Assembly: GCA_044892505.1 (NCBI GenBank)
Contig: CM097882.1
Location: forward strand, 379,812,001 to 379,876,000
DNA length: 64,000 nucleotides
Direction: 5' to 3'
From: Schmidtea nova
Lineage: Eukaryota
In this document: positions 16,538 to 51,142 of the stretch, piece after piece
How positions within the stretch are numbered: the first letter of the stretch is position 1
Layout of the letters: every line of letters begins with the position of its first letter
Position numbers and translations under genes: made by a program
The notes under the pieces: model-generated
Database searches by the model: none
What the model was told of the DNA's origin: nothing
The model's input: only the letters and a program-made list of their open reading frames with translations

Positions 16538-16911
16538 TGTTGGGCCAGCCAAATCGAGCAGCATCTGAAAATAATGTACAATCAATAAAATAAATTAAAT
16601 ACAGAATAACAACAAAATAAATTACCAACACCAAAGCGTAACAAAATAAGCGGCAACATCTAAAAGAAATAAAGTATTAACCAAAACAAAATAAAACTCA
16701 AGAACTTACTCATGCGAAACAGAAAAAATCTGAATATGACAGCGCGTGGGCGGATGTCACCGAAGAGCTAAAACAAAATCAAATAAAAATTAAATCGTAC
16801 AAAAAATAAACTTACCGCATGATTAACCAAATAAATCATTGAGTTGAGTTAGGCACCAAAAAGCCGGCAACACAAAATAATGAAGCAAACATACACACAT
16901 ACTCGATGCTG

Positions 16912-17047
16912 ATTGGCTAACCAACAACACCGGTTGAGTATAAATACTGAAGTCAAATCAGTATTTGACAATGTCATTTTACCGAGTGCAAGTTGTAACT
17001 GATAACTTGTAGTAATCTTGTGAACCAATCGAAAATAAAAGGTAATT
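16912..17047 (+). promoter_or_regulatory. LTR core promoter, poly(A) signal and candidate major splice donor
   Basis: ATTGG (CCAAT box) at 16912, TATAAATA at 16939-16946, hairpin GTCAAAT-cagt-ATTTGAC at 16952-16969, AATAAA at 17034-17039, and AG|GTAATT at 17041/17042. Confidence 0.6.
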
Positions 17048-17976
17048 TCGAGTTATGTTTTGATGTATTTAAACCCTCATAATTATGTTAAAATCCATAA
17101 GGTTTTCCGGAGGCCTAACAGCCTGACGGATTCTTTGGCCTCTCAGCGCAACACACCTTATCGGTTGTGAGGTACTGATGCGGCGGGACCATAAGTTTAC
17201 TAAATACTTGATGGGGGAAAAAGGGGATGCACATAGGGTATCGAGTAAGACCTAATGATCATGAACTAAGTCAAGGTAGAGACGGTCTAGTACAAACGCT
17301 ATGCATCACGATAATAAGGTATCGAGTGACAGTTAATGGTCATAAATCGAATCAAGGTAAAGCTCATTTCGCAAGGGAAGATATATACATGAGGTATCTT
17401 GACGAGGGGGTGTACCTTCAAGGAGTGCTGGTACATCAAAAGTCGATGAGAATCGGGATAGGTAAAGCGTAACATGGTGGTCAAAGGACATTAGCGCCAA
17501 GGGGCAGTAGTGAACCGAATGAGTTGCTAATAAATACATATAATCCCACTGAGGGCATGAAAAGTCAGACCCGATAGTAGATAAAATTAGTGCGTTTCTC
17601 AACGAAGTAGTTGACTAAGGGATTACTAAATTTTCCCCGTGACGTGAATCTTGATAGTTGCTGATGATGATCCGTAAATGAACCATGTTGAATGAATGAA
17701 AATGATCGATGAGAAATTAAATGTAACGTAAAATATGATTGTAAATAACAAGTCGAAATGAGCGTAGCTAAAACCAACTGAAATTGCGGAGTGAATCAAC
17801 TCACCCAAGTAAAGTCACCACCTACATGAACACCGCGACCAATGGTCTAGTAAATTATATACGAGCTACAAGGCCTACGGCTAATAGAACGATAAACCAA
17901 GTAGGTTGATCGACATAAATATCGATGGTCGATGATAGAGTCTGTCAGTTAACCTAAAATTCCATTTCAGAGTGAC

Positions 17977-18612
17977 ATGATGAAGACCGAATATCTCATG
18001 AAGGAGCCGGTAGGACCCCTAACCGTCAAATCAGAGGAGTACATTCTACGGAGGAAACGGCGCATCCGCTCCGTCATCACACCAAAATTACCTATCGAAA
18101 TCCAAGGAGAGAAGGAGGCCCCACGCCAAATTTTCAACTCCGCACGTAGACACCTGCGTCGATGGACAAGGACCCATATGAGCACAGCGGCAAGTATTCC
18201 CGCCTGTGCATTCCAACTACAGCTGAGGTGGGAAGGCGATGTCAATTGGACGCCCTCCCCGAACCCCACCAAAGATGGATACGAAAGATGGTTCTATCAA
18301 TTTGTAGATGAAACACAACAACCCCGCTGGGTACTAAGCACCGGAATGATGACCGGGCAGGCATTCGGCCAACTCGGGTATTTGCTGCTAGACAGGCCTC
18401 GGTGTGGTGACACTGGGGAAGTCTTCGTTTACCCGAACGCCCCAGGCAGTGTTTCCGTGGATCAACACCCCGAGCCCAAAGACCTTCGCCTCTGGGAGGT
18501 GTTCATTTATCAAAACAAACTGAGTTGGAATCCGGCCCCCGAACTATACCATGAAACAGGGATTCGCCGAGACGAGAACCCGGCCGATCAAGAGTTACGA
18601 CCATACAATTGA
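17977..18612 (+). CDS. LTR-encoded 211-aa protein of unknown function
   Basis: Intact ORF, identical in both LTRs, preceded by the acceptor-like TTCCATTTCAG. Confidence 0.6.
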   Translation: MMKTEYLMKEPVGPLTVKSEEYILRRKRRIRSVITPKLPIEIQGEKEAPRQIFNSARRHLRRWTRTHMSTAASIPACAFQLQLRWEGDVNWTPSPNPTKDGYERWFYQFVDETQQPRWVLSTGMMTGQAFGQLGYLLLDRPRCGDTGEVFVYPNAPGSVSVDQHPEPKDLRLWEVFIYQNKLSWNPAPELYHETGIRRDENPADQELRPYN

Positions 18613-18789
18613 TCACGAGGACGACATCCCAATGAACGAATATCTGTTGTGAATTAAAAATATATGTATCCATTTAAAAGGGTTTTGTTTTGGTTTTGGA
18701 TGCATGGGGAATGAGTAAGGATAAGGGTGCAGTTGTTTAACGGTAAAATGGTGACTGAGAAACCAAACGATACATACATACCCTAGTTA

Positions 18790-19371
18790 ATGATACATTA
18801 CTCAGATATGGACGAAAATCCCAATCTAGATTACAAGCAAGAGGCACGCGAACATAGAGCACGATCTCGTGTCCTCGAGAGTCGCTTGAGACAGCTGAAT
18901 GAGGAGCACCAGCGGATTAAGGCAACATGGTTTAATCCTGAGAGGGTTAAAACCATCTTACAAGCCCGATACAGAGCGGAACGAACGATCGATGAACAAG
19001 CGAGAGAGGTCGCAGCCCTGAAATTAGAGTTGGCCAATTATTTAAAGGTGTCTACCCAAGACTTCATCGCTGAGCAATTGCGTCCAGTGATTAGAGCGAG
19101 CACCTTTAACAAATGGTTAAATTCGACATCAGCAACGACGAGTACGCAAACCGACGAAGAGATAATCGTAACTACGGCAACCGAGATGACCACAATCATA
19201 CCACGAGGGTCGCAGAGGACAAAACGAAGGAACCGCTTAGGGGCGAAAAAGCGGAGGGAGCGACGCGCATATGCAGATCGCGTAGGAATAGAAGTAGACT
19301 TGCTCAGTGGCCTATCTGAACAAGAACTACTAAATGTAATTAGACCCTCTGTATTGTTAAACTATAAATAA
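18790..19371 (+). CDS. LTR-encoded 193-aa coiled-coil protein with an Arg/Lys-rich motif
   Basis: Intact ORF containing KRRNRLGAKKRRERR; AATAAA follows the stop. Confidence 0.6.
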   Translation: MIHYSDMDENPNLDYKQEAREHRARSRVLESRLRQLNEEHQRIKATWFNPERVKTILQARYRAERTIDEQAREVAALKLELANYLKVSTQDFIAEQLRPVIRASTFNKWLNSTSATTSTQTDEEIIVTTATEMTTIIPRGSQRTKRRNRLGAKKRRERRAYADRVGIEVDLLSGLSEQELLNVIRPSVLLNYK

Positions 19372-19761
19372 ATGTATAAAACTAATGATTTGACTTGTCT
19401 TGTTTGTTTGTGGAATGTCTGAGAATTGAATATAACTAAAACCCGGATTCATGTAAAACTGCAGATGCGCTAAGATTAAATTACCCTAGAGCAAAAGAAA
19501 GAGCATAAGTGGGACCGAAAGAAATCCACAGACGCCTTCTATCGGTAGTGGTGGACCCGTGAATAAACAAGGGAATAGTAGCCGAAAGGTTGCTCACCTG
19601 CCTTGTCATTTCACAACGTTGACACAGTACCAACATGATGAGTAGTTAGGGATACATCATGGGTGTCAGCGGGGGAATGTTTTTATGTTGGCGAGATCAC
19701 CCTAACATATAAAATCATGAGGATCTCAGTTGTCAATCTAACCAACACACCAGCATAAATT

Positions 19762-19780: not shown

Positions 19781-20313
19781 AAATCGATCTTTGTGGGAAA
19801 AAGTGAATTCGATATCTGCGGACAGTTTAGAGCGCCTGAACCGGGATGAATTGAATTTAGCGAGGAAAGGTAAAGTAAATAATAACAGAGGGTTTAAGTG
19901 TCGTGAAGCAAGAATGAATCGGGTTGAAAAATAATAGATAAAAGTATGAGTGTAAAATAATGAGATTGATGAACGTGATGAAAGTATGCATGAGAATGAA
20001 AGTATGAATGATAATGGAATGGAAGTATGAGGACGAATGAAGTATGATGAATAGTATGTGGAATAACAGTATGAAAAGTGATGAAAAGTATGCATGACGT
20101 AAGGTAAAAGTATGCTGAAAAGCGCGTATGAAAATGGTATGAGTGTGAGCAACTAACAAGGATCATGTCGGGGCGACATTCAAGAACACGGGGGGATATA
20201 CACGCAGTGACGCAAAACAGAACAACAGAAAGCGAACAGTAGGACTACCATAGAATAAGAATAAGAAATAATAAATAAAAATCGACAGAAATTAATGGTA
20301 ATTCATTCAGGGG

Positions 20314-20772
20314 ATGGAGAACAAAATAAAAGAAATGCAAACGTTTTTCGAGACAAATAACGAGACAATGGAGATAATAATGAGAAAGTTAAGACGACTC
20401 GAGGTAGGAGGATATCACAAACCGACAAACAAAACAGAAAGAGCCGAAATGATGATGAGCATAAGCGAGAATAAGATAACAGTGGATACAGCAACACGAT
20501 ATCAGTGGTATAGAGAAAGATTAAACAACCCTGAGATGAATATCGAGTGCCACAGGCTAGAACAACAAATTGCAACAAAACACGATGAGTGGATAAGAAT
20601 AACAACCGAACATACGAGACAATATCTGACGTGTTACATCTGTGAAATGAATAAGATACAGATACTGTTGTTGCCGTGTGGGCATTATCGATTCTGTAAT
20701 GAGTGTAAAATAAATGAACGATGTCCTATGTGCAACCTTCCCGTATCCGAGAAAATAACAGTGTACTTGTAA
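20314..20772 (+). CDS. 152-aa protein with a C-terminal IAP/MDM2-type C3HC4 RING (no BIR domain)
   Basis: CYICEMNKIQILLLPCGHYRFCNECKINERCPMCNLPVSEKITVYL at the extreme C-terminus. Confidence 0.85.
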   Translation: MENKIKEMQTFFETNNETMEIIMRKLRRLEVGGYHKPTNKTERAEMMMSISENKITVDTATRYQWYRERLNNPEMNIECHRLEQQIATKHDEWIRITTEHTRQYLTCYICEMNKIQILLLPCGHYRFCNECKINERCPMCNLPVSEKITVYL

Positions 20773-21475: not shown

Positions 21476-21993
21476 CATAGGTCTCATAGTGAGCATAGGT
21501 CTCGTCATGAAACATAACATCCTAGTGAGCGTAGGTCTCGTCATAGTGAGCATAGTTCTCGTCCGTAAATATAAATCTCGTAGTGAGCAGAGTTCTCATT
21601 AATAAACACAAGACCAGCGAACATAGTCCTCATCAGTGAGCGTAGTTCTCATTAATAAACATAGTCATCGTAGTGAGCATAGTTCTCCTCAGTGAGCATA
21701 GTTCTCGTCAGTGAGCATAGTTCTCGTCAGTGAGCATAGTTCTCGTCAGTGAGCATAGTTCTCGTCAGTGAGCATAGTTCTCGTCAGTGAGCATAGTTCT
21801 CGTCAGTGAGCATAGTTCTCGTCAGTGAGCATAGTTCTCGTCAGTGAGCATAGTTCTCGTCAGTGAGCATAGTTCTCGACAGTGAGCATAGTTCTCGTCA
21901 GTGAGCATAGTTCTCGTCAGCGAGCATAGTTCTCGTCAGTGAGCATAGTTCTCGTCATTGAGCATAGTTCTCGTCATTGAGCATAGTTCTCGT
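21476..21993 (+). repeat. 19-bp minisatellite (GTGAGCATAGTTCTCGTCA), ~17 near-perfect copies plus degenerate 5' copies
   Basis: Directly visible; the homogeneous part spans ~21673-21993. Confidence 0.97.
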
Positions 21994-22317
21994 TCGAAAT
22001 AAAATATTGAGTAAAAGCCCACGAGAAAGACGACGAAGTGAGGCAGATGAGGACTAAATAAAGTATAAAACTATCCGGATAGTAAAGATCAACAAGCGAT
22101 AATGGAGATGAATAAGTGATAATGGGGATAAATGATGAATAGTGAAAATGAATAGCGAATAATGAGGAATAAGGGTTGAAAGAAACCGAGGTAATAATGA
22201 GAGAGTTGAAGGTGCGCACCTGGGTATTGATAAATGCGAGTAAAGCTGATTATGTAGCCTAATGACGTCAAAGTATGCATACAAGGAGGAGTAGTAAAGT
22301 AAAGTGAGTAAGTAAAG

Positions 22318-22870
22318 GGTGCTGACTGGAAAACCCAGCAGACCATGAGATTCGATGGGAATTAAAGGAAACCGGTTTGTTAAGACAGGTAAAGTGGTAA
22401 AGACGCTAGCTGGAAAACCCAGCAGGTCAATGATAACGATCAGGAAAGATCGAGAGAATAAAAGGGAGTAACAATAAAGTGGTGAAATTGAGGACGCTGA
22501 CTGGAAGACCCAGCATGTCAAAAGTGATGATCATCGGAGCAAAGAACAGGTAAAAGTCGACAGTGAAGAGATAAAGGGTGGAGAATAAGAGCGCTGACTG
22601 GAAAACCCAGCAGACTAATGAAACGACAGTCGTGGTCGAGAATAACGAGATAACAGTAAAAGGGGAGATTAAAAGCGCTGACTGGAAAACCCAGCAGGCT
22701 AATGAGATAATGAGTGATGTTGAGAGAAATAAAGTTGAGATAAAAAAGTGAGATTAAAAGCGCTGACTGGAAAACCCAACAGGCTAATGAGATAATGAGT
22801 GAAGTTGAAAGAAACAGAGTTCGAGATAAAAGGTGAGATTAAAAGCGCTGATTGGAAAGCCCAACAGGCC
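22318..22870 (+). repeat. Seven spaced copies of GCTGACTGGAAAACCCAGCAG (period ~85-95 bp)
   Basis: Copies at approximately 22320, 22405, 22495, 22592, 22677, 22762 and 22846. Confidence 0.9.
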
Positions 22871-23744
22871 AACAAGAGATGTCAGTTGAATTAAAGGTGA
22901 GTAGAGATGAGAATTGAAATGAAGTAGTAAACGTAGTGTGAATAGGAAATAAAGCGAATAGCCGAGAAACAGAGTAGTCGACAGATAAGGGGAAATTTGA
23001 ACTCAGAGCCAGAGAAGCCTGAGAAAAGTAAAGGGGATAATAAGAGCGCTGAGCGACAAAGTAATTGGGGAACTGGGGAAAAGTAATTGGTGTATTTGAT
23101 AAAGAATAGATAATTGATGCGACTGCATAGATAATTTAAATAGACTTAAAATCAAGGGAAATGGGAAAAATGGGGATCTTCATGAATTATGACTACACCC
23201 GTGAGAGGGACGAGAAACACGATAACGGGGACGTATCGTGTAAGTGATTATTTGTTTTAAGGAAACAAATCAATCAAGCAATTCAAAGCAATCTAGCAGT
23301 CAGAACAATCAAAGGAAACAAATCAAAGAAGAAACAAAGCAAAAGCGAAGTAGAAAATCAGTTGAGAATATAAGAAGTTGAGGAATAGACAAAATTGAGG
23401 GACGAGAAACAAGATCAGGTATAATACCAATCTTAACGGAAGCAGAAAGAAAAGCAGCAAAAAGAACAAGAACAGGTAACAAGCCTAAGCAACAAAAGAA
23501 CAAACAAGTAGAGATCAACGACAATTCGAGTAATAAAGAGAATCAAGAAGAAACCCCAGAAGATCTAGAAGTACGAAACGAAGTAGAAACGATAGACAGT
23601 GAACCAGTTAGTGAAAACATAACGAGAAGCGAATCAAGAGATAACGAAACAGAGAGTAGTGAGGAAGAAGAGTCGAATCCAGAAACAAGTGGTGAACTAG
23701 AAGCAAAGAAAACTAGTACAGTATTCCAAGATAGTGGAATCAGG

Positions 23745-26700
23745 ATGAGTGATCACAGAGAGGATCTAAGAGAAAAATTCAAGGGCGAACCATTCAACGG
23801 AGACGCCAGTAGATTGGATACGTTCCTGAAGGAATTTGGTATATTTGTGGATATATGCGGATGGAGTGCAGAAACGTTGGCAAATCGAATCCCGCTATAC
23901 TTGAAAGATAGCGCATTGGATCTGTATATTGAAAAGAGATCGGGAAGTAGTCCACCCAGAACGTGGGAAGCGATCAAGGAGTTCTTCCAACAGACGTTTG
24001 GGATAAACAAAGTGCTGAATGAAGCATTCGATGAGTTCTCAGCAAGAAAACAGAGGAGAAATGAGTCAAATGCGGTGTACGCAAGTGAATTAAGAAAGTT
24101 GGCGAAACTGGCATTCAACAGAGGAAGTCCAGTAGACGAAGAATTGATGACAGCGTTATTCGTACGAGGTCTCAGGAGACCTGACATCAGAGCACAAGTG
24201 GGATGCAAAGGATGTAAAACAGTAGATGAAGCGTTGGAAGCAGCCAACCTATTCGAATTGCATATGGCAATGAATGACATGAGAATTACGGCGGTAATGG
24301 GAAAAACGACGGAAGATGAAGAACAAGGAAAAAGAAACATGAATCAAAGTATTCCCCATTCGCAGAGATTGTTCAAAGAACCGCCAACGAGGAAGAATAA
24401 CGGATATATTACGGTGAATACGAATGGAGGAAATAGTTACAATGATAGGCAGAATAGGCAATGTCAGACGTGTGGAAAAAACGGACATTGGCAACAAGAT
24501 TGTTTTCAGAATGTAGCCTGCAAACTGTGCGGACAAAAAGGTCACTCAGAGAATCGATGTTATGGGAAAACGTGTTACACATGTGGAAAAACCGGACACA
24601 TGTCAAAAGACTGTAATCAACAGAGAAATTGGTCAAACAGTGGAAATAGACCGAATTACGGGAATCGACCAAGCTATGGGAATCAAGGTCAACAACGGAA
24701 CAACCCAAACAGCAGTGCAAACGAAGCTAGTATGAAAGAAGCTAAGTTGAGACAGGAGGTGTCTAGATTACACGAGATAATCGAAAGCATGGCAAAGGGA
24801 AGCCAACAAGCTGCTCAACCAAAGATAAACATGATCCAGTTAATAGAAGCTGAGGCTGAAAGAGAAAATAGAGAAAGCCAACAGAAACATAACCAAGAAT
24901 GGGCTAGAGTACGACGAGAAGAAGAACAAGTCAGGCAACAACGATTACAACAGTTAAAAAAGGGAAATCCAAGGATCAACATGATGCGAGCAATGATGGA
25001 AGAGAAGCAGCAGGATGAGTCAGACGAGTTAGAAGTTAAAGAGAAAAGAAACGAAGAGCAGAAACAAGAAGAAGTGAGTCAGGAAGTAGAAGCCACAGAG
25101 CAGAATCAAAAAGTTGAAGAAGTAGAAAAAGAAACAGAAATAGAAAAAGAAACAGAAAAAGAAACGAATCAAGAAGAGGAAGTGAGAATCAAACAAAGAG
25201 GAATGTTGGTGATCATGCCGAATGATCACGTGTGGCGATTCAAATACGATGTAAAAGAAGAAGTGGGAAGATTGTTCAATAAAGTAAATGAGATGATGCC
25301 GGGAGTGACGAAACTGCCCAGAGAAGCATTCCTACAAACAGAAGATCTACCAGAAGTGAAGTTAAAGATGACTGATATATGGGAAGATATGGGAGTAACG
25401 GAGACGAAAATAAACGTGATGATCATCAGAGAGGTGGAACCGGAGAAAATCCCACCACCAGTGAAACATCAAACTCGGATCAGTCGAATATTCAAAGGAA
25501 AAATAAGACGAAGACGGTTGGAAGAAATAGATGAGTTGGAGAAAAGAATGGGAAAAGCTGAAGTAACAGGAAACGAGAATGAACTAATACAAGAAGTTAG
25601 CAAAAACGAAGCGAGACCAATCGCACATATTGGGATGCTGAGACACCCAAGACAAGAGTTGTCAGATGAAGAAGACGACAGCGAAGTTAGCAGTCTGGCA
25701 GGAGACATGCTAAAGGAACCGGAAAACGAGGATAAAAAGATGGAAGTAGTCGAGACAATAGAAACAATGTCAGTAAAGGAAGACGAAATTCAGAAGCTGA
25801 TGGATAACGCGTTGGAAGTAATCCATAACGAGGAGTTTATTGACACGAAACGATACCGAAAGTTTATACGAGCAGTATGGCAAATGAAGTACAAAGAGTG
25901 GTTACAAGAAAGAGAAGTGAGGGTAATACAAGAGTTCATAGAGAAGTTATTGAAAGAACCACTCAACGAATATGTAATACAAATATGGATAAACGAGTGT
26001 TCACCGAGAATCTGGATAAGGAACCCAATGACAGACGGAATTTACCGATGGGTTGAGGACAGATTGGGAAGCTCGTACCAAGACAAATTCATATATTCGG
26101 AAAACGGATTGGTGAGAAAAGGAACGCATATGATAGACACGGGCATCTGGCCAGGAGAAATAACGACGTTATCTATATGCAACACCAAGAAGGAAGAGAA
26201 CTTACAAGGAATCGTCAAAGAAGCGAATACGTGTTATGAGATGAGAATAAAACCTCAGTTGCTAGAGGCAAAGGAAAGAATCTTGGCAGAGAATTTGAAT
26301 ACGATGATAGAACAGATCATACAACAAATCAAGAAACATCGAAAGAAATTGACGAAAAGCGAGTATGAGAATTTGAAACAGTGTATCGAGAACATACGAG
26401 ATACAAGTCAAACGAGACATTCAAATTTCAAAACAGACAAGCTAATCGCAAAGATGGGAAAAGAAATGTTTAAAAGAGGAGAAGTATCAGATCTGAAGAT
26501 TACCGTGAGATTACCGAATGAAGAGACAAGACAAATTGAGGTAATACCAGATAGTAAAGTGGGAGAAATAGTAGATGTCATCAATGAGACGATATTACAA
26601 CGAGAACGGGAAGATGAATTCGAGGATGACATTGCGATAAAATACAAAGAACACCTACTAAACGAACGTGACGAAAGACGAGCGTATAAAATCGGCATAT

Positions 26701-29700
26701 GGGATAATTATCAGACAATACATGTCATCAGAATGGATGATGTGCAAAGAGCAACACCAAGGGATGAAAAAAGGAGAAAGAAACGACAAGAGGACGTTAT
26801 GCGCAAGCTGAGGCAGATAGTAGAAATCTATCGGAACTGGCAGATGAAGCCAGAATGGGAGACAATATTAGGAGAAGTGGATCTTAACAGACGACGATTG
26901 ACGCCAGTGGAAAAACAATGGGATAACAAGGAGAAATGTTGGAAAGTGAAAAGAGGCGTGTATGAAGAAGATCCGGAAGGAGAAGACGGATATGAACTGA
27001 ATACGAAACGGATATGTATGGTAACAAGGAAGTTATTACCAACGGACTTAGACGGACCAGAAACTGCAGTAATATGGGCAGAATTGGAGAAACAGAAAAC
27101 GAGTGAATTGATAGAGCTGTTGAGAGGAAACACTCGGGGAAAAAGACAAACAATAAAAGGCTTAGCACAATTCATAATCTCAAATGGAGAAGATATAACG
27201 AACTTGAGAAAAGTAGCTAAAGCGATAGCAGAATACAAGAGAGTTAACGAGTGGTGTCCAGAGCAACTAGACGATGTAATAAAAAAGTGGAGAAACAAAG
27301 AGTTTGCGGAGGAAACGCCACAGAAAATACATTTGAGGATAATGTATCCGAATCAGAGAAAAGAAGAGTTTTGGGTGATGCTAACGGAAAAAGTGAAAAG
27401 TGTTAAAGAGAAACTGATGTACGAACTACCATTCCACCTGCAACATCAAGGACGATCGTTGGATAACAATTTGGAAATCTGGCTGACACCAGTGCAATTG
27501 GATCTAATGAATACGCTAACAGTGGCACAAATAGTGGGTCAACCACTGAAGTTTAAAGAGGAAAAGAAAGCGAAAGGAAGCATGAGTACACCAAGTCCGA
27601 TGAAGTCAACAATGACCCCAGGAACAAGTTCGGGACAAGCAAAGACAACACCAATAAAAACGAGAGAGAGAACACCGCCAGAAGCGTATGACGTCGATGA
27701 GATACTAACAGATAGTGATGAGGCGATAGAAGAACTAACGAAGTTGACTCAAAAACCAACGGCGAATATTTTCGACAGAATAATAGAGATGCCAATAACG
27801 TCACCAGCAGAAATCGACGACCAAGGAGTGGAACAGGAGGTAGTCATAGAAATGGTAAACGATTCGGAAGACGAACAAGAACAACCACAGTTTACTCAAG
27901 AAATGGAAAGATGGTTGGAACAACGAGCAAACGAAGGAAGAGATGTGACGGAAGAAACAGGAAGAGCAACGAGATTTGTAGAAACCGGAACTGGAATGGA
28001 AAAACGACCAAGAGGAAGATCAAAGATAGATCCAGCAACAGCAATTCCAAAGACAAGAGAAGAAAGGAGACAAGAGCAATGGGAGATTTGCTTGAAGAAA
28101 TTGGATAAAATCGCAGAGATCAGAGGAAAAGAAGAGAATCAAGTTTGTCAAGGAGAAGAATGGCTCACCAAAACGATAATGGATGTGTTAGCGATAATTG
28201 ATCCAGAATTAAAGAATTTGTGGCGGATAAACGAACCTAGTACAAAGGCACGGATGCTACACAATGCAATAGCACCGATTATGCCAGAATTAATTAAAGC
28301 GAAAACAAAATCGAATCATCTAGATTGGCAAGGAACCACAATGTTAATAAAAAGGCTACTGAACGGAGCAGAAACGGACAGCAAATATCTAGTAGCAATC
28401 TCGTATACAATATACAATTTGTTAACGCTAAGCCGAGGAAGTCCGAAGTCAAGTCCGATGGGAAGACATATTAAAAATACGGCGTTGATTATCGAGAAAG
28501 AAATTGAACCATATATCCTCAGAAAAGGAGGATGGGAAAAGTTCATAAAAGAGAACCAGACGAAAGAAGGCTCAAACGTCATGAGAAAGAAACTCGAAGG
28601 AGTATTGAGAGAAATGGAGAATAGACAAACGATGCAAGGAAACGGAAGATCGACGTTGAATTTGAACTCGATAATCATGATGATGTTAGTATGGTTGTTA
28701 AGCACAGAAGGTGTAACAACGTTCGAAGTATTTGATTGCGATCAAATGAAGTTAGGAGAAAAGTACTCATTGAGAGGTACGGAGCAATGCAAAGATGCAA
28801 CTCCCGTAGAGTTAAAAGAGATTAAAAAGGAACAATGGTACAACGTGTATCAAGAGGCAGAACTAATAAAGACAATGGTGAATGAATGCAAGGTGCAGAA
28901 GACGAGATTCGCATTTTATTGTGGGAGAGGACATTATTCAGCAATTGTCATGCCAGGAACAGAAAGAGAACCAATCGTGTTGCAAGGAGAAGACTGCGAA
29001 GCATTATTTAAACATGGAGAAGTAACAACGAGAGATAAAATCAAGATAAGAGGAAAGCCAGGAATGATGTTACAGCAGACGTATTATGTAGCAGGACGAA
29101 TTACGGGAGGAGAAGGGTATTGTCAAGGAGAAACCTACCCAATATTCGGAGTGCCTGCAACCAACTTAGTTGTGATGGATACGTACATAGTTGAACTGAA
29201 AAGTTACGAAGCATTTTTTGAACCAACCACAGGAGAAATGAAAACGTTATCCATGTGTAAAATCGACAGAAGCATGTGTCAAACGGGAATGTCAACATTG
29301 GTGTATAAACCAAAGGTGAACGAATGTCAATTACAACTGCTACAAGGAGCAAAGTTTGACGAAATTCAAGGGAAAACATTCCAAGAAGAAGATGATGATG
29401 ACAAAGCTAGAGCAAAACATCTCAAAGAGGCTTTAGAGAATAAAAGACAATTGAGACCAGATCACAAAGAAAAACGGATAGAGATGAGAACCACACCAAC
29501 AGTGCTGATAACCACAAATCAGGATGTGGGAATGAGATTCATAAAAGGGAAAGCAACCCTTAAGTGCAGTACAACAGTATACGAAACAAACTATCCAGGA
29601 ATATACGTGTCAAAGCAAGAAGTGCCGAATGCGAAACCCAAGATTGACACCATGGATATCAAGCTACACTTGTATGTGAATAATAAAATGGATTTCTTAT

Positions 29701-32700
29701 TCCATAGAGGACAAGCCTCATTGCAAAAAGTGTACTATGACCTGATAAACAACGATTGTATACTGAATCGAGAAATATTAAAGACAAAGTTGGCCGTAGC
29801 GATTACGAATCCAGATAGCGCGATGCCGTTATTACCACTGAGAGAAGGACATTTCGGAAGAGTGGTCGGAGAAGCAATGTATGTATACATTTGCGAAAAG
29901 ACACACGCATCGCTAGCAACAACAACGCAGTTGAAACCTGGACAATGTACAAACGAACTAGAAATCGATTACAAAGGAAAAGTACGATACGTTCAACCGG
30001 TGACGAGAATCATCAATCCACCAAGTTTTGAACCAAATCCATTCAACTGTAGTAACGCGTACGGACCGCTTTATCAGAAGCCAGATGGCAAATGGGTCAT
30101 GTTCCCAGGAAGAACTGAAGTATTAGCACCAAGAGAATTTGAGCTAATGCAGTTGTCAAAAGATAGACAGTTCAGCGACGTAGATGTCTCAAACAACGGA
30201 ATCTATAGTCCAAAAGATCTGGAAGCAGCAAGACAGAATATACTATTTCCGGCAAGAAGAGAAGCATTACTGTCAAATATCGTAACGATAACGGGAGGAA
30301 CGAATTATCGAGAAGGACCGAATTACGAACTGCTGTTGTCACCGGCACATTTCAAGAAAGCCACAGAAAATATGATGAAGGCGATGTGGGGAAGATTCCT
30401 GATATTTGGACAAATGATGGCTGGAATACTGGGAGTTATATTGATAATACAAATCGTCAGAGTGATAATAACGCAGATGTTAGCGTGTTTCGACATCTAC
30501 AAGAGAGAAAAGAAAGTGAATTGGAAAATGGTAGTAGGATTTTTACCATTCCTTGCGAAAACGATGGTGTTACATGGACACTCAAAAGACATACATCGAA
30601 TAAAGAGGTTGTTGAAGATACTTGCAAAAATGAAAGGAACTAACGAAGATGTCGGAAGAAAATTCAAAAAGATAATGCAAGATGAACAAGCAAGACGACA
30701 ACTGAAGAAGGAAAGGAAAGGATTATGGGAAAGAGTGAGAGGATATCGAACACAAGATGATTCAAGTAATGATGACGATGATGATGACGATCGAGGAGGA
30801 CAAGCGAATATAAACCAGATTCCACAGTATACCGAAAAGAGTGCAGTTGAGAATTGGAGATACAGCGCTCCACCTCAGTCGATGTATAACGAACCGATAT
30901 ACAAAGCGAAGCCGAATATGATGCAGATGATGCCGATGACAAGTATATACCCGATAATTCCAGAAGGATGCAAAGTAAAACGAGGTAGTAGCGTAAACTC
31001 GTTGGAAGACACGCACACGATAGCAGTTATGTCCACAAATATGGGACCCATCTTAACAACAACCGTAGAAATAAACGGAAGAGAAATTGAAGCTATGATC
31101 GATACAGGCGCGAATATTTCGGCGATCGACATTAATTATATACCAGAGAAAAACCAAGGAGAAATCGAGAAGACGAATGTACATGTAATCGCGTGCAGTC
31201 AAGAGACAGTAGAAGTAGCCGGAAGATGGTTTGTAAAAATTAAGCATCGAGGTGCAGAGATCAACACGTACATCGCTGTAATACCATCGCTGAGTGTACC
31301 ATGTATTATTGGAACTGACCTGATGCCAGACCTGTTCAAGGAAATCGTGATTGATCTAGGAGCAATGAAACTAAAAGATAGAACAGGAAAAATTTGCAGA
31401 ATGAAAGTTAAAGTGGCAAGTGCAGAACAAATAGTAGTGCCAGCGAGACATGAAAAGATGTGTTATGTCAAGATCGATTCAACAATAAAGGGAGATATGA
31501 TATTCGAACCAAGTAAGAAGTTCGAAGCGAAGAAGGAATTACCAATGGCAAGAGAACTGGTTACGACAAACCAAGAAGGTGAGATACCGATTAATCTGGT
31601 AAATTTCGACGAAGAGGACAAGATAATATACGAGAATGAGAGATTGGGTAAATTGACACCCATGTCCGAAATCGAAATACCAGACAAGAATGAGTGGGCA
31701 AAGGCCAAAGAAACGATCAAGCAAAGTAGACTAGGAAACATAGAACCATCCAAAGATATGGAAATACGAGAATTCGAGTCTAGCACACTCGCGGTTCAAG
31801 CGTATGAAAGATTAATTGAAGAAATTAATGTCGAGGACGACATTTTTAAAGGACCAGGGGGTGGTTCCAAAGATCACAACGATAAAGGAGACGCCGAAAA
31901 GGAGAACAACGAGGATAACAACAGCAACAGCGACAACAAAAGAACGGAAGATGAGGAAAGAGAGAGACAAGAAGAACCGAAGCCAACGAGAAACGACAAG
32001 AAAGGAGAAGCCGAAGAACGAGACAACAGTGGAACAAAAGATGAACATGCGAACTATGGAAAACGAACAGGAAGTCTACTTTTGAGACCAGAAATGTTGT
32101 GTATTGCGATATTGATAACAATCATCGGACAAGGAGAAGCCAAGAAACAACACGTCACGCTAGAGATAATCAGAGGAAACGAAGTATACGAAAGAATATG
32201 CTGGAAAGAAAACATGAGGAAAAACGATACGCTGAAGTGCATATTGTCAGATTTGAAGAAAGACGTCATCCAAATCAAAGGATTGGAGAAAGAAAAGTCA
32301 TACATAATATGCGCAATAAAGCAGAGAGGAGAACCGAAAGCACCTCAAGTAACTGCATGTCAATTATATAAAGCAACAGAAGCGCTGAAAATACAGAAAT
32401 GGATTGAGAAAAGAAGCGAAGAGACAACGAGAAGAACAGAAGTAGAATCGGAGAAAGGGAAGAATCAATCTGAAGCAGAAAAAGGAATCGGAAACCGAAC
32501 GGAGAAAGAAAGAATAACCAAAAATTCAGCGGGAAAATTAACATTCCAACCGGAATTGATATGTGTAGCATTAATACTAATCCTCATTAAGAGAATCATG
32601 GAGGACATAGATATTAGCGTAATGACGTTAGTAAATATCCAAGACCAACGAACAACGAACGGAAGATGTTGGGGACGAAACAATGAGGTAATTGGAATCA

Positions 32701-34019
32701 GCGAAACAAGAGAAAGTCGAGAGGCAGAGACAAATGAGGAAATCGAGATAACCGAAATGGAAACAGAGAAAACATGTGAACTATGCCTCATGGAAAAGGC
32801 AGCAAACGGAAACAGACCAGGAACAAGCGAGTGTAAAGTGTTCCAAGCAAAGGAGATAATTGAGTTCCCAAAAAGAAAGAAACAAGATCAAGAAACGATT
32901 GCGAATGAAGTAGTAACAGTGGAGATAAAAAACATTGGTCGGAGAACAATTGGGATGTGTTGGAGAAAATACATCGGAGTACCGACCAACAACGTACTAC
33001 CGCAATGCAAAACGAGAGAACGAGGAATCCCGTTTCAACTAAATGGATTCGAAGTCGGACAAGCATATGAAATTTGCGTAATCCGAAGAATAAGAGAAAT
33101 AATACAAAGAAGCCTGGAATGTAAACTATACAAGACGCCAGAGCAAATTAACGGAACAAGAACGATCGAAATGGGAGGAAGTCGACAGAGGAAAAGAAAG
33201 TCAAGAAGAACCACGACAGCCAACAGTCAAGGAACTCAACAGGCAACAACAGAAAGGATGACAATAGAAAACGAACCGGAATCAACAACGTTGATAATAT
33301 GGAAGATCCATAAAAAGGTCCTAGAAATCTGTTGGACGTTGATGCCAAACAGTATGGGAAAGTCCCCACGAAACTGTCAAAAGACATCAAATGACAAAAG
33401 GGAAACAATCGAGGTAGAAATGAGGAAGTTGAAAACAAATGCAGAATACGAAGTGTGTGCAATCGAAGAAGTAGATGCACAAGGAAATCAACAGGAAAGG
33501 TGTGAAACCTATTACACGCCAAGAAACGTAACGATAAAGAGGAGAATCAAAAAGTTAGAATTCCGAGAATTGAGTCAGAAGAGAGAACAAAACGAGAAGG
33601 AGGAGACAATACCAAGTCGACAAGAAAAATGGGAACCAGAGAAAGTGATCGAAGAAGTCAGACGGAGACAACAACAATACGAACAATGGGAAGCAGAATG
33701 GAAAGGTCAATATGGCGTGATGATAAACCAAAGTGAGACTCCAAGAAGGAGCATTGGGAAAACAATAATGGGATTAATCAGCATGGGAGTATTCATAGGG
33801 TGTATACCACTGATAACGATCATGATAGTATGTTGGAGATATGGCATGAGAAATAAGACCATAGCAGTAAAATGGCCAGACGTAAAGGTCATGAATTACA
33901 ACATAAAACTACCAAAAGAAGTACGAGAAGAGCTGAAAAGACGGTCAAGACATGAAGAGATGTGGGTACAGATCGAGGACGAGGAACTGTACGAAGGAAA
34001 ACCAGTAATAGTTGTATAG
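23745..34019 (+). CDS. 3424-aa polyprotein: Gag + 3 CCHC, UBL domains, Bcl-2-like domain, chuvirus-type env, retropepsin, dUTPase-like segment, 4 FN3-like modules, TM
   Basis: Gag FNGD..F..EF..RKQ..NES; knuckles at 24462-24614; EPYILRKGGWEKF (BH2-like) at 28500-28544; signal peptide followed by FDC..YSL..C..FYCG from 28668; TM at ~30395-30480; AMIDTGANIS (DTG at 31101) and IIGTD; terminal TM at ~33765-33836. Confidence 0.93.
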   Translation: MSDHREDLREKFKGEPFNGDASRLDTFLKEFGIFVDICGWSAETLANRIPLYLKDSALDLYIEKRSGSSPPRTWEAIKEFFQQTFGINKVLNEAFDEFSARKQRRNESNAVYASELRKLAKLAFNRGSPVDEELMTALFVRGLRRPDIRAQVGCKGCKTVDEALEAANLFELHMAMNDMRITAVMGKTTEDEEQGKRNMNQSIPHSQRLFKEPPTRKNNGYITVNTNGGNSYNDRQNRQCQTCGKNGHWQQDCFQNVACKLCGQKGHSENRCYGKTCYTCGKTGHMSKDCNQQRNWSNSGNRPNYGNRPSYGNQGQQRNNPNSSANEASMKEAKLRQEVSRLHEIIESMAKGSQQAAQPKINMIQLIEAEAERENRESQQKHNQEWARVRREEEQVRQQRLQQLKKGNPRINMMRAMMEEKQQDESDELEVKEKRNEEQKQEEVSQEVEATEQNQKVEEVEKETEIEKETEKETNQEEEVRIKQRGMLVIMPNDHVWRFKYDVKEEVGRLFNKVNEMMPGVTKLPREAFLQTEDLPEVKLKMTDIWEDMGVTETKINVMIIREVEPEKIPPPVKHQTRISRIFKGKIRRRRLEEIDELEKRMGKAEVTGNENELIQEVSKNEARPIAHIGMLRHPRQELSDEEDDSEVSSLAGDMLKEPENEDKKMEVVETIETMSVKEDEIQKLMDNALEVIHNEEFIDTKRYRKFIRAVWQMKYKEWLQEREVRVIQEFIEKLLKEPLNEYVIQIWINECSPRIWIRNPMTDGIYRWVEDRLGSSYQDKFIYSENGLVRKGTHMIDTGIWPGEITTLSICNTKKEENLQGIVKEANTCYEMRIKPQLLEAKERILAENLNTMIEQIIQQIKKHRKKLTKSEYENLKQCIENIRDTSQTRHSNFKTDKLIAKMGKEMFKRGEVSDLKITVRLPNEETRQIEVIPDSKVGEIVDVINETILQREREDEFEDDIAIKYKEHLLNERDERRAYKIGIWDNYQTIHVIRMDDVQRATPRDEKRRKKRQEDVMRKLRQIVEIYRNWQMKPEWETILGEVDLNRRRLTPVEKQWDNKEKCWKVKRGVYEEDPEGEDGYELNTKRICMVTRKLLPTDLDGPETAVIWAELEKQKTSELIELLRGNTRGKRQTIKGLAQFIISNGEDITNLRKVAKAIAEYKRVNEWCPEQLDDVIKKWRNKEFAEETPQKIHLRIMYPNQRKEEFWVMLTEKVKSVKEKLMYELPFHLQHQGRSLDNNLEIWLTPVQLDLMNTLTVAQIVGQPLKFKEEKKAKGSMSTPSPMKSTMTPGTSSGQAKTTPIKTRERTPPEAYDVDEILTDSDEAIEELTKLTQKPTANIFDRIIEMPITSPAEIDDQGVEQEVVIEMVNDSEDEQEQPQFTQEMERWLEQRANEGRDVTEETGRATRFVETGTGMEKRPRGRSKIDPATAIPKTREERRQEQWEICLKKLDKIAEIRGKEENQVCQGEEWLTKTIMDVLAIIDPELKNLWRINEPSTKARMLHNAIAPIMPELIKAKTKSNHLDWQGTTMLIKRLLNGAETDSKYLVAISYTIYNLLTLSRGSPKSSPMGRHIKNTALIIEKEIEPYILRKGGWEKFIKENQTKEGSNVMRKKLEGVLREMENRQTMQGNGRSTLNLNSIIMMMLVWLLSTEGVTTFEVFDCDQMKLGEKYSLRGTEQCKDATPVELKEIKKEQWYNVYQEAELIKTMVNECKVQKTRFAFYCGRGHYSAIVMPGTEREPIVLQGEDCEALFKHGEVTTRDKIKIRGKPGMMLQQTYYVAGRITGGEGYCQGETYPIFGVPATNLVVMDTYIVELKSYEAFFEPTTGEMKTLSMCKIDRSMCQTGMSTLVYKPKVNECQLQLLQGAKFDEIQGKTFQEEDDDDKARAKHLKEALENKRQLRPDHKEKRIEMRTTPTVLITTNQDVGMRFIKGKATLKCSTTVYETNYPGIYVSKQEVPNAKPKIDTMDIKLHLYVNNKMDFLFHRGQASLQKVYYDLINNDCILNREILKTKLAVAITNPDSAMPLLPLREGHFGRVVGEAMYVYICEKTHASLATTTQLKPGQCTNELEIDYKGKVRYVQPVTRIINPPSFEPNPFNCSNAYGPLYQKPDGKWVMFPGRTEVLAPREFELMQLSKDRQFSDVDVSNNGIYSPKDLEAARQNILFPARREALLSNIVTITGGTNYREGPNYELLLSPAHFKKATENMMKAMWGRFLIFGQMMAGILGVILIIQIVRVIITQMLACFDIYKREKKVNWKMVVGFLPFLAKTMVLHGHSKDIHRIKRLLKILAKMKGTNEDVGRKFKKIMQDEQARRQLKKERKGLWERVRGYRTQDDSSNDDDDDDDRGGQANINQIPQYTEKSAVENWRYSAPPQSMYNEPIYKAKPNMMQMMPMTSIYPIIPEGCKVKRGSSVNSLEDTHTIAVMSTNMGPILTTTVEINGREIEAMIDTGANISAIDINYIPEKNQGEIEKTNVHVIACSQETVEVAGRWFVKIKHRGAEINTYIAVIPSLSVPCIIGTDLMPDLFKEIVIDLGAMKLKDRTGKICRMKVKVASAEQIVVPARHEKMCYVKIDSTIKGDMIFEPSKKFEAKKELPMARELVTTNQEGEIPINLVNFDEEDKIIYENERLGKLTPMSEIEIPDKNEWAKAKETIKQSRLGNIEPSKDMEIREFESSTLAVQAYERLIEEINVEDDIFKGPGGGSKDHNDKGDAEKENNEDNNSNSDNKRTEDEERERQEEPKPTRNDKKGEAEERDNSGTKDEHANYGKRTGSLLLRPEMLCIAILITIIGQGEAKKQHVTLEIIRGNEVYERICWKENMRKNDTLKCILSDLKKDVIQIKGLEKEKSYIICAIKQRGEPKAPQVTACQLYKATEALKIQKWIEKRSEETTRRTEVESEKGKNQSEAEKGIGNRTEKERITKNSAGKLTFQPELICVALILILIKRIMEDIDISVMTLVNIQDQRTTNGRCWGRNNEVIGISETRESREAETNEEIEITEMETEKTCELCLMEKAANGNRPGTSECKVFQAKEIIEFPKRKKQDQETIANEVVTVEIKNIGRRTIGMCWRKYIGVPTNNVLPQCKTRERGIPFQLNGFEVGQAYEICVIRRIREIIQRSLECKLYKTPEQINGTRTIEMGGSRQRKRKSRRTTTANSQGTQQATTERMTIENEPESTTLIIWKIHKKVLEICWTLMPNSMGKSPRNCQKTSNDKRETIEVEMRKLKTNAEYEVCAIEEVDAQGNQQERCETYYTPRNVTIKRRIKKLEFRELSQKREQNEKEETIPSRQEKWEPEKVIEEVRRRQQQYEQWEAEWKGQYGVMINQSETPRRSIGKTIMGLISMGVFIGCIPLITIMIVCWRYGMRNKTIAVKWPDVKVMNYNIKLPKEVREELKRRSRHEEMWVQIEDEELYEGKPVIVV

Positions 34020-34492: not shown

Positions 34493-34581
34493 TGAATAAG
34501 CGGAAAATTGTGTAAATACGTGTAAATAAAGAACCAGAAAAATCAAAAATATGGGGAAATTGATGTAAATATTGTTGTAGA

Positions 34582-35994
34582 ATGAGAGCAGAAAGTGAAG
34601 CAGATTACCAAACAATCGAGATTCTAAGAGGAGAGAATCGACAATGGGGAGTAAATGTGACGTGTGTAAAGTGTAAAAATTTACTGTTAAAACCGAGACA
34701 AACGGAATGTGGATGCAGGATGTGCACCAAGTGTATATTGCAAATAATCAGTGAAAGTGAGACAAGAAAGTGTCCAGAGTGTGACGATAAACTACTGATC
34801 AACGAGACAAAACCAGATAAAGCAATACAAAAGGAGATCTGGAAGATAAAAACAGAGTGTATAAACCAACCATGCGAATGGAAAGGACAAATAATCGAGC
34901 TAAGACAACATCTGGAGAAATGTGAAAACAAGAAAGCGATATGTGAAAAGTGCCAACAGACGATAACCATCAAGCAGTCAAAAAAGCACAAGGACGAGTG
35001 CAAAGCAGAGATAATAGAGTGTCAATACTGCGAACAAAGAGAGACGAGAGAAGTAATCGAAACAGAGCATCTCAACGTAGCAGAAGAGAAAGTGTGTAGA
35101 AAATTCAGAGGAATTTGTCCAAGTAATTGTGGAGCAGGAGAAGAAGTGATGTTGAAAGAACATTGGGAACAGTGCGAATCCAGACCAAGAAAGTGCGTAT
35201 GGAGTAAACAAGGATGTGCAGTAAAGAAAACGAGCAAAGAGATGAAAGAGCATTTGGAAACGGAAACGGTACAACACGCCGAGATGTTAACAGCGAATTT
35301 GAACGGAATGGAGCAAACCATACAGAAACTGGGAAAAGAAATCGAATCTCAGAGGATAATGACGGAGTTATTACTGGAAACGAGAGAGCAATTCGAGCTC
35401 ACCGGAGAAAAAATGATGGAGAAAATCAAAGTCATAGAGACATTGGTAAAAGAAGTAAACGTGAGACATCAAATGTGGATACGAGATACAGAGGATATCG
35501 AGAATTTACCGGTCGCACCATATGTATGGAAAATCAAGAACTTCAATGACAAATTCGCAGCAGCAAAAGCAGGAAGTCAAGTGTCGGTAACAAGTCCACC
35601 ATTCTATCTGTGGAAAAATGGATACAAAGTCCGGATGAGAATTTATGCAAATGGAGATGGATCAGGAAAGGAAACGCATGTGTCGTTATTCTTCGCGTTG
35701 TGTAAAGGTGGTTACGACGACATATTAGAATGGCCACTAGAAACAAAGGCTATAATGAGAGTGAAAAACTCGAAAGAAACAATAGCGAGAGTATTCAAAA
35801 TTGATGGTAAGCACGAAGCTTACAAAAGACCAACCACAGAATGTTCATTAGCGACTGGAGAACCAAAATTCATACCACACCAAACAACGTGGGAGATGTT
35901 GTACGATGACAACTTATATGTAGAATTGGAAATCGAAAAGAAAGCAAGTACAACAGTGATGAACACGAAGTGCACGAAAGGATGGTTAGAGTAG
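34582..35994 (+). CDS. TRAF: Intronless full-length TRAF-family protein (RING, TRAF zinc fingers, coiled coil, MATH)
   Basis: CVKC..PRQTECGCRMCTKC..CPEC; PDKAIQKEI..C.N..C.W.G; CVWSKQGC; MATH domain YVWKIKNF..SPPFY..GYKVRMRIYANGDGSGKETHVSLFF.L.KG.YDDILEWP. Confidence 0.95.
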   Translation: MRAESEADYQTIEILRGENRQWGVNVTCVKCKNLLLKPRQTECGCRMCTKCILQIISESETRKCPECDDKLLINETKPDKAIQKEIWKIKTECINQPCEWKGQIIELRQHLEKCENKKAICEKCQQTITIKQSKKHKDECKAEIIECQYCEQRETREVIETEHLNVAEEKVCRKFRGICPSNCGAGEEVMLKEHWEQCESRPRKCVWSKQGCAVKKTSKEMKEHLETETVQHAEMLTANLNGMEQTIQKLGKEIESQRIMTELLLETREQFELTGEKMMEKIKVIETLVKEVNVRHQMWIRDTEDIENLPVAPYVWKIKNFNDKFAAAKAGSQVSVTSPPFYLWKNGYKVRMRIYANGDGSGKETHVSLFFALCKGGYDDILEWPLETKAIMRVKNSKETIARVFKIDGKHEAYKRPTTECSLATGEPKFIPHQTTWEMLYDDNLYVELEIEKKASTTVMNTKCTKGWLE

Positions 35995-37842: not shown

Positions 37843-39486
37843 AAACCGACCCCTATGAGCCAGAAACATTGAACTGTGTATAAACAATAAAAACATGACA
37901 AGGACAATGTGTGACTTTGTAAAAATGGGTATAAAAGCTACCACCTTATGTGGTTTTGCATGTAAGTTCTGTCACGAACTTTTTATGTATGTTGATGTAG
38001 GTATATGCATGTAATTGCGGGACGCAATTTTAGGGGACCCCGAGTGATGTTGGGCCAGCCAAATCGAGCAGCATCTGAAAATAATGTACAATCAATAAAA
38101 TAAATTAAATACAGAATAACAACAAAATAAATTACCAACACCAAAGCGTAACAAAATAAGCGGCAACATCTAAAAGAAATAAAGTATTAACCAAAACAAA
38201 ATAAAACTCAAGAACTTACTCATGCGAAACAGAAAAAATCTGAATATGACAGCGCGTGGGCGGATGTCACCGAAGAGCTAAAACAAAATCAAATAAAAAT
38301 TAAATCGTACAAAAAATAAACTTACCGCATGATTAACCAAATCAATCATTGAGTTGAGTTAGGCACCAAAAAGCCGGCAACACAAAATAATGAAGCAAAC
38401 ATACACACATACTCGATGCTGATTGGCTAACCAACAACACCGGTTGAGTATAAATACTGAAGTCAAATCAGTATTTGACAATGTCATTTTACCGAGTGCA
38501 AGTTGTAACTGATAACTTGTAGTAATCTTGTGAACCAATCGAAAATAAAAGGTAATTTCGAGTTATGTTTTGATGTATTTAAACCCTCATAATTATGTTA
38601 AAATCCATAAGGTTTTCCGGAGGCCTAACAGCCTGACGGATTCTTTGGCCTCTCAGCGCAACACACCTTATCGGTTGTGAGGTACTGATGCGGCGGGACC
38701 ATAAGTTTACTAAATACTTGATGGGGGAAAAAGGGGATGCACATAGGGTATCGAGTAAGACCTAATGATCATGAACTAAGTCAAGGTAGAGACGGTCTAG
38801 TACAAACGCTATGCATCACGATAATAAGGTATCGAGTGACAGTTAATGGTCATAAATCGAATCAAGGTAAAGCTCATTTCGCAAGGGAAGATATATACAT
38901 GAGGTATCTTGACGAGGGGGTGTACCTTCAAGGAGTGCTGGTACATCAAAAGTCGATGAGAATCGGGATAGGTAAAGCGTAACATGGTGGTCAAAGGACA
39001 TTAGCGCCAAGGGGCAGTAGTGAACCGAATGAGTTGCTAATAAATACATATAATCCCACTGAGGGCATGAAAAGTCAGACCCGATAGTAGATAAAATTAG
39101 TGCGTTTCTCAACGAAGTAGTTGACTAAGGGATTACTAAATTTTCCCCGTGACGTGAATCTTGATAGTTGCTGATGATGATCCGTAAATGAACCATGTTG
39201 AATGAATGAAAATGATCGATGAGAAATTAAATGTAACGTAAAATATGATTGTAAATAACAAGTCGAAATGAGCGTAGCTAAAACCAACTGAAATTGCGGA
39301 GTGAATCAACTCACCCAAGTAAAGTCACCACCTACATGAACACCGCGACCAATGGTCTAGTAAATTATATACGAGCTACAAGGCCTACGGCTAATAGAAC
39401 GATAAACCAAGTAGGTTGATCGACATAAATATCGATGGTCGATGATAGAGTCTGTCAGTTAACCTAAAATTCCATTTCAGAGTGAC

Positions 39487-40122
39487 ATGATGAAGACCGA
39501 ATATCTCATGAAGGAGCCGGTAGGACCCCTAACCGTCAAATCAGAGGAGTACATTCTACGGAGGAAACGGCGCATCCGCTCCGTCATCACACCAAAATTA
39601 CCTATCGAAATCCAAGGAGAGAAGGAGGCCCCACGCCAAATTTTCAACTCCGCACGTAGACACCTGCGTCGATGGACAAGGACCCATATGAGCACAGCGG
39701 CAAGTATTCCCGCCTGTGCATTCCAACTACAGCTGAGGTGGGAAGGCGATGTCAATTGGACGCCCTCCCCGAACCCCACCAAAGATGGATACGAAAGATG
39801 GTTCTATCAATTTGTAGATGAAACACAACAACCCCGCTGGGTACTAAGCACCGGAATGATGACCGGGCAGGCATTCGGCCAACTCGGGTATTTGCTGCTA
39901 GACAGGCCTCGGTGTGGTGACACTGGGGAAGTCTTCGTTTACCCGAACGCCCCAGGCAGTGTTTCCGTGGATCAACACCCCGAGCCCAAAGACCTTCGCC
40001 TCTGGGAGGTGTTCATTTATCAAAACAAACTGAGTTGGAATCCGGCCCCCGAACTATACCATGAAACAGGGATTCGCCGAGACGAGAACCCGGCCGATCA
40101 AGAGTTACGACCATACAATTGA
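39487..40122 (+). CDS. 3'-LTR copy of the 211-aa ORF
   Basis: Identical translation to 17977-18612. Confidence 0.6.
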   Translation: MMKTEYLMKEPVGPLTVKSEEYILRRKRRIRSVITPKLPIEIQGEKEAPRQIFNSARRHLRRWTRTHMSTAASIPACAFQLQLRWEGDVNWTPSPNPTKDGYERWFYQFVDETQQPRWVLSTGMMTGQAFGQLGYLLLDRPRCGDTGEVFVYPNAPGSVSVDQHPEPKDLRLWEVFIYQNKLSWNPAPELYHETGIRRDENPADQELRPYN

Positions 40123-40299
40123 TCACGAGGACGACATCCCAATGAACGAATATCTGTTGTGAATTAAAAATATATGTATCCATTTAAAAGGGTTTTGTTT
40201 TGGTTTTGGATGCATGGGGAATGAGTAAGGATAAGGGTGCAGTTGTTTAACGGTAAAATGGTGACTGAGAAACCAAACGATACATACATACCCTAGTTA

Positions 40300-41640: not shown

Positions 41641-41687
<47 letters not shown>

Positions 41688-42746: not shown

Positions 42747-42785
<39 letters not shown>

Positions 42786-43630: not shown

Positions 43631-43668
<38 letters not shown>

Positions 43669-51109: not shown

Positions 51110-51142
<33 letters not shown>

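Follow-up and report, generated by a model that had tools for sequence, protein, structure and literature searches.

A domain of the Bcl-2 family is encoded in the Gag-Env-protease polyprotein of a Burro-type retroelement of the planarian Schmidtea nova. Its homology to Bcl-2 proteins and its Bcl-2 fold are well supported. We lean towards a role as a virus-style survival factor, which would sequester host death proteins during expression of the element. That Burro elements carry a BCL2-like motif immediately before an in-frame env has already been published and is not new here. Since the motif itself is in print, the value of the locus lies in a bounded domain (aa ~1590-1726), a predicted fold and diverse homologues, which make the function easy to assay. 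Planarian tissue turnover leans on cell death. If the domain is a working Bcl-2 protein, it would follow that a transposon present in well over 100 recent copies can bias the survival of host cells. The window referred to below is the whole stretch of 64,000 nucleotides that was analysed, and all positions are positions in the window.

The element carrying the domain

The domain belongs to an LTR element of 24.7 kb, the parts of which are all read on the forward strand. Two LTRs of 3218 bp with TG...CA ends (16538-19755 and 38048-41265) form its bounds, and a target-site duplication of 4 bp, CATC, stands just before the 5' LTR and again after the 3' LTR. The LTRs differ by three mismatches over 3218 bp, which, together with the target duplication, argues for a recent insertion. 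Both the size above 20 kb and the very long ORF by which Burro-type elements are recognised were found. This ORF is a single open frame of 3545 aa from stop to stop (23382-34019), and the order Gag(CCHC), BCL2-like, env and protease is present within it, followed by a C-terminal region with hydrophobic segments. The Gag part comprises a capsid region and three CCHC zinc knuckles (23745-24635; Retrotrans_gag E 3.6e-6, zf-CCHC in three stretches, E 1.1e-14). Env is a Monjiviricetes-type fusion glycoprotein (28674-30503; PF24664, E 1.1e-67), in frame with Gag on one side and a retroviral-type aspartic protease (31059-31331; RVP, E 7.8e-9) on the other. A small upstream ORF (20302-20772) has a RING finger at its end (Pfam zf-C3HC4_3, E 3.5e-9), and an accessory TRAF-like ORF with RING, TRAF zinc finger and MATH domains lies downstream (34564-35994; MATH, E 4e-25). 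No BIR was found in the scanned ORFs of this copy, and the window is absent from the 150 scored BIR matches. Ubiquitin/SUMO-like and dUTPase-like domains gave no Pfam match in the candidate stretches of the polyprotein; one homologue from outside the genome (P0002) has a weak ubiquitin match (E 0.005) ahead of its Bcl-2-like domain.

The window copy carries an in-frame internal deletion, with its junction at 31688-31705. The ~4.6 kb absent in comparison with sister copies correspond to the reverse transcriptase (RT), RNase H, integrase and ankyrin repeats, which follow the protease in the sister copies L035 and L034. Frames in sister copies reach ~5090 aa. Four other copies span the same junction (40 scored). 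The window copy, the LTRs of which are near-identical, and at least four others sharing the junction are a non-autonomous subfamily that is still spreading. Deletion-bearing copies have lost RT, RNase H, integrase and ankyrins and have kept Gag, the Bcl-2-like domain, Env and protease. A genome search with the domain gave 139 copies at 81-100% identity and 11 at 69-70% (150 scored of 1021 candidates, so that both counts are lower bounds). A stop lies inside the domain match in at least 20 of the 150 scored copies.

Env may have a history that differs from the rest of the polyprotein. Between the window family and the family at 69% identity (the 69% family), Env is 97% identical (window 28722-30671 against L034), with a dS of 0.42-0.51, whereas dS exceeds 1.3 or is saturated in Gag, the Bcl-2-like domain and the protease. 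This low divergence suggests that the two families have recently exchanged Env. Beyond the protease and the deletion, the stretch 32070-33840 contains a pair of hydrophobic segments that resemble signal sequences, several repeats of ~100 aa with Cys residues, and a C-terminal transmembrane segment. The repeats give the impression of extracellular beta domains and have no relevant Pfam match; this part of the polyprotein is perhaps a second surface protein. The section on planarian elements in PMC6431247 makes no mention of a region of this type.

Other observations were made in and around the element. The long leader that separates the polyprotein from the 5' LTR contains a 19-bp tandem array at 21480-22010 and a series of ~85-bp repeats at 22300-22910. 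Two open frames with no useful Pfam match, one of 219 aa and one of 194 aa, lie in each LTR (17953-19371 and 39463-40881). The stretch 41320-52404 is taken up by another element, whose long inverted arms pair in several blocks of 240-500 bp (94-99% complementary) and enclose a hAT-type transposase ORF (46424-47899) and unannotated ORFs. An SNF2 helicase ORF without introns, which contains repeats of 249 bp, lies at 4576-7581, and a second protease-RT ORF (61962-63678) lies at the end of the window.

Position and motifs of the domain

The Bcl-2-fold domain (28149-28559) is delimited by a structural match and a profile match and comprises eight predicted helices. The earlier note had placed a Bcl-2-like domain at 28170-28560 in the Gag-side polyprotein, which is almost the same range. 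The Gag-side location is right, yet the domain lies ~1150 residues past the zinc knuckles and immediately ahead of Env. An extra predicted helix N-terminal to the fold (28062-28118) is kept in the sister families and is located outside the structural match, which starts at model residue ~29-31.

The peptide that had been aligned with BH2 of Bcl-xL (aa 1704-1721, 28491-28544) contains PYILRKGGW at aa 1710-1718, i.e., the motif P-Y-I-x3-G-G-W, and BH2 of canonical pro-survival proteins is present in this form. GGW is near-invariant in a 20-row alignment of homologous domains (Gly in 19 and 20 rows, Trp in 19), in which near-duplicates occur, so that the rows are not independent cases. The peptide reported at BH1 spacing and without NWGR was likewise found. 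It covers the passage from helix 4 to helix 5 (aa 1654-1681, 28341-28424), where TDSK (28374-28385) replaces NWGR, 53 residues before the BH2 Trp. Over the same 20 rows, the Trp and the Gly of NWGR are each kept only once, and every row has Arg or Lys at the final position; in the window family it is Lys. No clear BH3 or BH4 motif was seen in the window domain.

A weakly hydrophobic stretch (aa 1763-1780, 28668-28721; mean hydropathy 1.52 over 19 aa) opens Env and begins ~42-45 residues after GGW. Ten element proteins have 29-56 residues between the two, and two cellular proteins have 19-22. The Env profile starts here (position 5 of 653), and the stretch is likely the Env signal peptide. It may also be a candidate membrane anchor for the Bcl-2-like domain; as it belongs to the Env profile, it may be a signal peptide alone.

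Homology to the Bcl-2 family

Direct searches with the window sequence alone found 0 Pfam families, one unrelated PDB match (phmmer, E 1.9) and no usable match in the ESM Atlas. The longer proteins of a 5.8-billion set gave no match either (316-2000 and 876-2500 aa covered, which is shorter than these polyproteins). The link to Bcl-2 is transitive: PF00452 matches nine of 14 aligned rows directly (best E 2e-8), the window row not being one of them. In a scan of the genome with the Pfam Bcl-2 family, 150 of 1679 candidates were scored and at least 33 exceeded the cut-off. The best 30 loci consist of 16 element-type and 14 host-gene-like ones. In most of the element-type loci, the match is followed by a linker, then by a hydrophobic stretch, and then by the start of Env as in the window. 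A further family has 44-47% identity to one element-type family. Three families of shorter elements (L047, L048 and L098), with frames of ~2990-3080 aa, have the Bcl-2-like domain and Env much nearer to Gag and a stronger Bcl-2 signal than the window element.

Profile comparisons connect the window family to these sisters over 119 columns at 24% identity (hhalign 78%, P 1.8e-5). When a profile of the sister-family domains only was run against the whole window polyprotein, the best stretch was aa 1596-1727, with 15.5 bits for the window domain, a score that 0 of 3000 shuffles reached. Shuffles that kept the BH2 motif and the downstream part reached it in eight of 3000 cases. With BH2 masked, the score fell to 4.6 bits, which 47 of 3000 shuffles attained; the sequence signal outside BH2 is thus weak by itself. 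Against the PDB, the sister-family profile matched Bcl-xL at E 4e-7 without the window family and at 3e-8 with it, and a 20-row profile to which nine more homologues had been added reached E 2.4e-10. In all three runs, the 60 matches listed were all Bcl-xL/Bcl-2.

A profile search of 1.84 billion representatives retrieved 14 proteins from outside the genome. Six have Gag or Env markers, three are fragments placed by likeness only, and five are cellular-type Bcl-2; the ten that were looked up all lack a name. The nine non-cellular ones entered the 20-row alignment (A4), which includes no recognised cellular Bcl-2. At least five element families of the genome, and the six outside proteins with Gag or Env markers, carry the domain at the same place.

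A chance match of GGW in a helical region without any relation to Bcl-2 would be in keeping with the missing direct Pfam or PDB match and with the drop into the shuffle range once BH2 is masked. It is hardly credible, however, as syntenic homologues exceed the Pfam Bcl-2 cut-off and profile and fold searches converge on the same family, which largely refutes it. The Bcl-2-like identity put forward in the earlier note is borne out by the shuffle test, the Bcl-xL match and the structural ranking given below.

Predicted fold

A model from the single sequence (pLDDT 55) was set aside; it was poor and gave generic helical matches only, with no Bcl-2 fold. The AlphaFold model built on alignment A4 (pLDDT 77, pTM 0.75) has one extra N-terminal helix and eight more. 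All 47 matches listed by Foldseek are Bcl-2-family chains, the best at E 4.3e-3 and none below 1e-3. In a wide VIA search, Bcl-2 folds occupy every rank from 1 to 34, led by a match with Z 11.6 (rmsd 2.7 Å, 134 residues aligned), and the first unrelated chain follows at Z 5.5. The match spans model residues 31-167. A library of viral structures returned nothing at E 1e-3 or better, and several named viral Bcl-2 proteins head its list. The window domain is predicted to keep the eight-helix Bcl-2 fold around the central helix 5. The earlier note had named the absence of a Bcl-2 fold in structure prediction as the result that would leave GGW to chance; the alignment-based model gave the fold.

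The structural ranking also bears on the target of the domain. Some poxvirus proteins (A46, A52, B14, K7) use a Bcl-2 fold to act on innate-immune or stress signalling. The window domain could do the same without binding BH3 helices, perhaps together with the TRAF-like protein of the element. The loss of the BH1 Trp and Gly, the TRAF-like and RING ORFs that the element also carries, and the existence of such a viral subgroup (PMC7022251) fit this explanation. It is nonetheless rather unlikely, given that canonical members match at Z 9-11.6, well above A52, A46 and B14 at Z 5.6-6.7, that BH2 and the basic BH1 residue are retained, and that such activity is, by the account in the cited part of the review, absent outside poxviruses (PMC7022251).

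Constraint and origin

When the window family is compared with the 69% family, the domain is 72% identical, with a pN of 0.155 at a saturated pS of 0.84. It thereby resembles Gag (70% identity) and the protease (78%) and far exceeds the linker after the domain (35%). The low-complexity linker before the domain is 64% identical as well, so the constraint on the domain stands out modestly. Neighbouring unannotated stretches have 57-70% identity.

These values agree with a captured fold that has been kept without any survival role. Such a fold might act as a structural spacer within the Gag-Env precursor, tether it to a membrane, or promote cell death. The degenerate groove motifs point in the same direction, and the structures of Bak, Bax and Bok match the model too (Z 9.2-9.5). 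Such an explanation is improbable all the same in view of the recurrence of the domain at one place in at least five families and six outside proteins, and of the conservation of BH2 and the basic residue at 14-25% overall identity.

The element domains were set against host Bcl-2 genes in an unrooted tree of 31 rows and 86 columns with long branches, from which four near-duplicate rows of A4 and four more host-type loci (two with an intron-like break in the match) were left out. The 16 element-type rows stand on one side of a branch with a support of 98/96. Four host loci and the outside protein P0008 adjoin them (90/96, not starred). The grouping fits a single host capture, and the element domain was likely captured once from a host gene. 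The four neighbouring loci belong to an expanded set of short host-type Bcl-2-like genes. In this set (L043, L045, L046, L057, L049, L063 and L066), W-S-R/K or a similar sequence replaces NWGR. A BH3 exon was not found in the 20 kb upstream of each of two Bak-like host genes.

Proposed function

The anti-apoptotic role inferred in the earlier note is plausible, and the survival factor towards which we lean can be drawn up as follows. The polyprotein precursor would be made with the Bcl-2-like domain in the cytosol, and the hydrophobic stretch would direct Env to the ER. Two cuts would be made, an upstream one by the element protease and another, at the Env signal, by signal peptidase. The outcome would be a cytosolic product of ~570 residues with the Bcl-2 domain near its C-terminus, held at the membrane (at the ER first) by the Env signal stretch, which would then occupy the place of the tail anchor of cellular family members. 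The groove, with Lys at the position of the NWGR Arg, would take the BH3 helices of host Bak, Bok or BH3-only proteins. A death inhibitor would be produced one-to-one with Gag and Env, and the producing cell would be spared.

The size of the product follows from the last candidate protease site ahead of the domain, at aa 1210. The candidate sites are a repeated motif with eight occurrences, one of them just before the protease. Shuffles contain it 1.0 times on average and five times at most (500 shuffles), a control that overstates the enrichment, as the pattern was written after viewing the sequence.

The evidence on the groove is divided. The loss of the NWGR Trp and Gly counts against BH3 binding, as does the Lys in place of Arg in the window family; in Bcl-xL, the changes G138E/R139L/I140N abolish Bax binding (PMC5348979). 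When the domain was modelled together with a host BH3-like stretch of 34 residues, with the alignment unused, the score was 0.01, which favours neither side. In viral Bcl-2 proteins that have SPGR or NDNR here, BH3 is still bound via the Arg (PMC8310162), and together with the Arg or Lys kept in all 20 rows, this favours a functional groove.

The putative anchor admits another target. Tethered at the ER, the domain could act mainly on autophagy or ER stress, through Beclin-like BH3 segments or calcium channels, and ease the load of Env production rather than block mitochondrial apoptosis. An anchoring signal peptide would place the domain at the ER, and the viral proteins M11, E1B19K and A179L bind Beclin-1 (PMC7022251). 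The anchor, however, is itself inferred, and a main role of this kind is unlikely.

The survival role can be set beside other genes of the window element and of other repeats. A BIR-RING (IAP-like) ORF adjoins a TRAF ORF ~36% identical to that of the window in another high-copy repeat family, in which the TRAF ORF is followed by the IAP-like ORF of ~399 aa (L117, 3-2436). No BIR-RING ORF follows the TRAF ORF in the window element. The TRAF-like ORF of the window element and the BIR-RING/TRAF pair of the other family would fit a toolkit for death control. A wider proposal can be advanced tentatively: Burro-type elements may reuse the Env signal peptide as the tail anchor of a virus-style Bcl-2, taken up long ago, and only once, from a group of divergent host paralogues. 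The domain would be part of a Bcl-2/TRAF/IAP toolkit and is kept even where copies lack RT and integrase. If true, a retroelement would actively edit cell survival in its host. In the open-access literature, neither a functional test of the domain nor a statement of the signal-as-anchor idea was found.

Comparison with known systems

Among cellular pro-survival proteins, Bcl-xL, Bfl-1/A1, Hydra Bcl-2-4 and Trichoplax Bcl-2L2 resemble the window domain in the predicted eight-helix fold (Z 10-11.6, rmsd 2.7-3.0 Å), the BH2 motif P-W/Y-I-x3-GGW, the spacing of BH1 and BH2, the basic residue at the NWGR Arg and the hydrophobic stretch after BH2. In contrast to them, the window domain has TDSK for NWGR and no clear BH3 or BH4, at 8-18% identity. 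It also lies inside a polyprotein, and its hydrophobic stretch is ~20 residues further off and coincides with the Env start.

Viral Bcl-2 homologues such as A179L, KsBcl-2, BHRF1, M11, M11L, TANV16L and GIV66 are encoded by separate genes of DNA viruses and their activity has been tested, whereas the window domain is part of a retroelement polyprotein and is known from sequence and a model. The tested viral proteins come from large DNA viruses, and viral proteins with a Bcl-2 fold also serve in the control of autophagy or NF-kB (PMC7022251). Shared features are a host-derived fold, a degenerate BH1 and a mobile genome, and the viral structures match the window model.

The closest known systems are the Burro/GYPSM1 elements of planarians. 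According to the section on them in PMC6431247, which cites Jurka 2007 and Grohme et al. 2018, they encode Gag, MATH/TRAF, BIR, ankyrin and a BCL2-like motif, with an in-frame env between BCL2 and protease. The window element differs in that its TRAF is a separate downstream ORF, that RT, RNase H, integrase and ankyrins are gone from this copy, and that Pfam does not recognise its strongly diverged Bcl-2 domain directly. By the published description, the likeness extends to the length above 20 kb, the one huge ORF and the Gag with three CCHC knuckles. It further includes the BCL2-like motif just before an in-frame env akin to mononegavirus-type fusion proteins, the protease that follows, the RT-RNase H-integrase and ankyrin repeats (in the sister copies of the window element) and the MATH/TRAF cargo. 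The same source has already proposed that Burro/GYPSM1 elements meddle with host apoptosis (PMC6431247).
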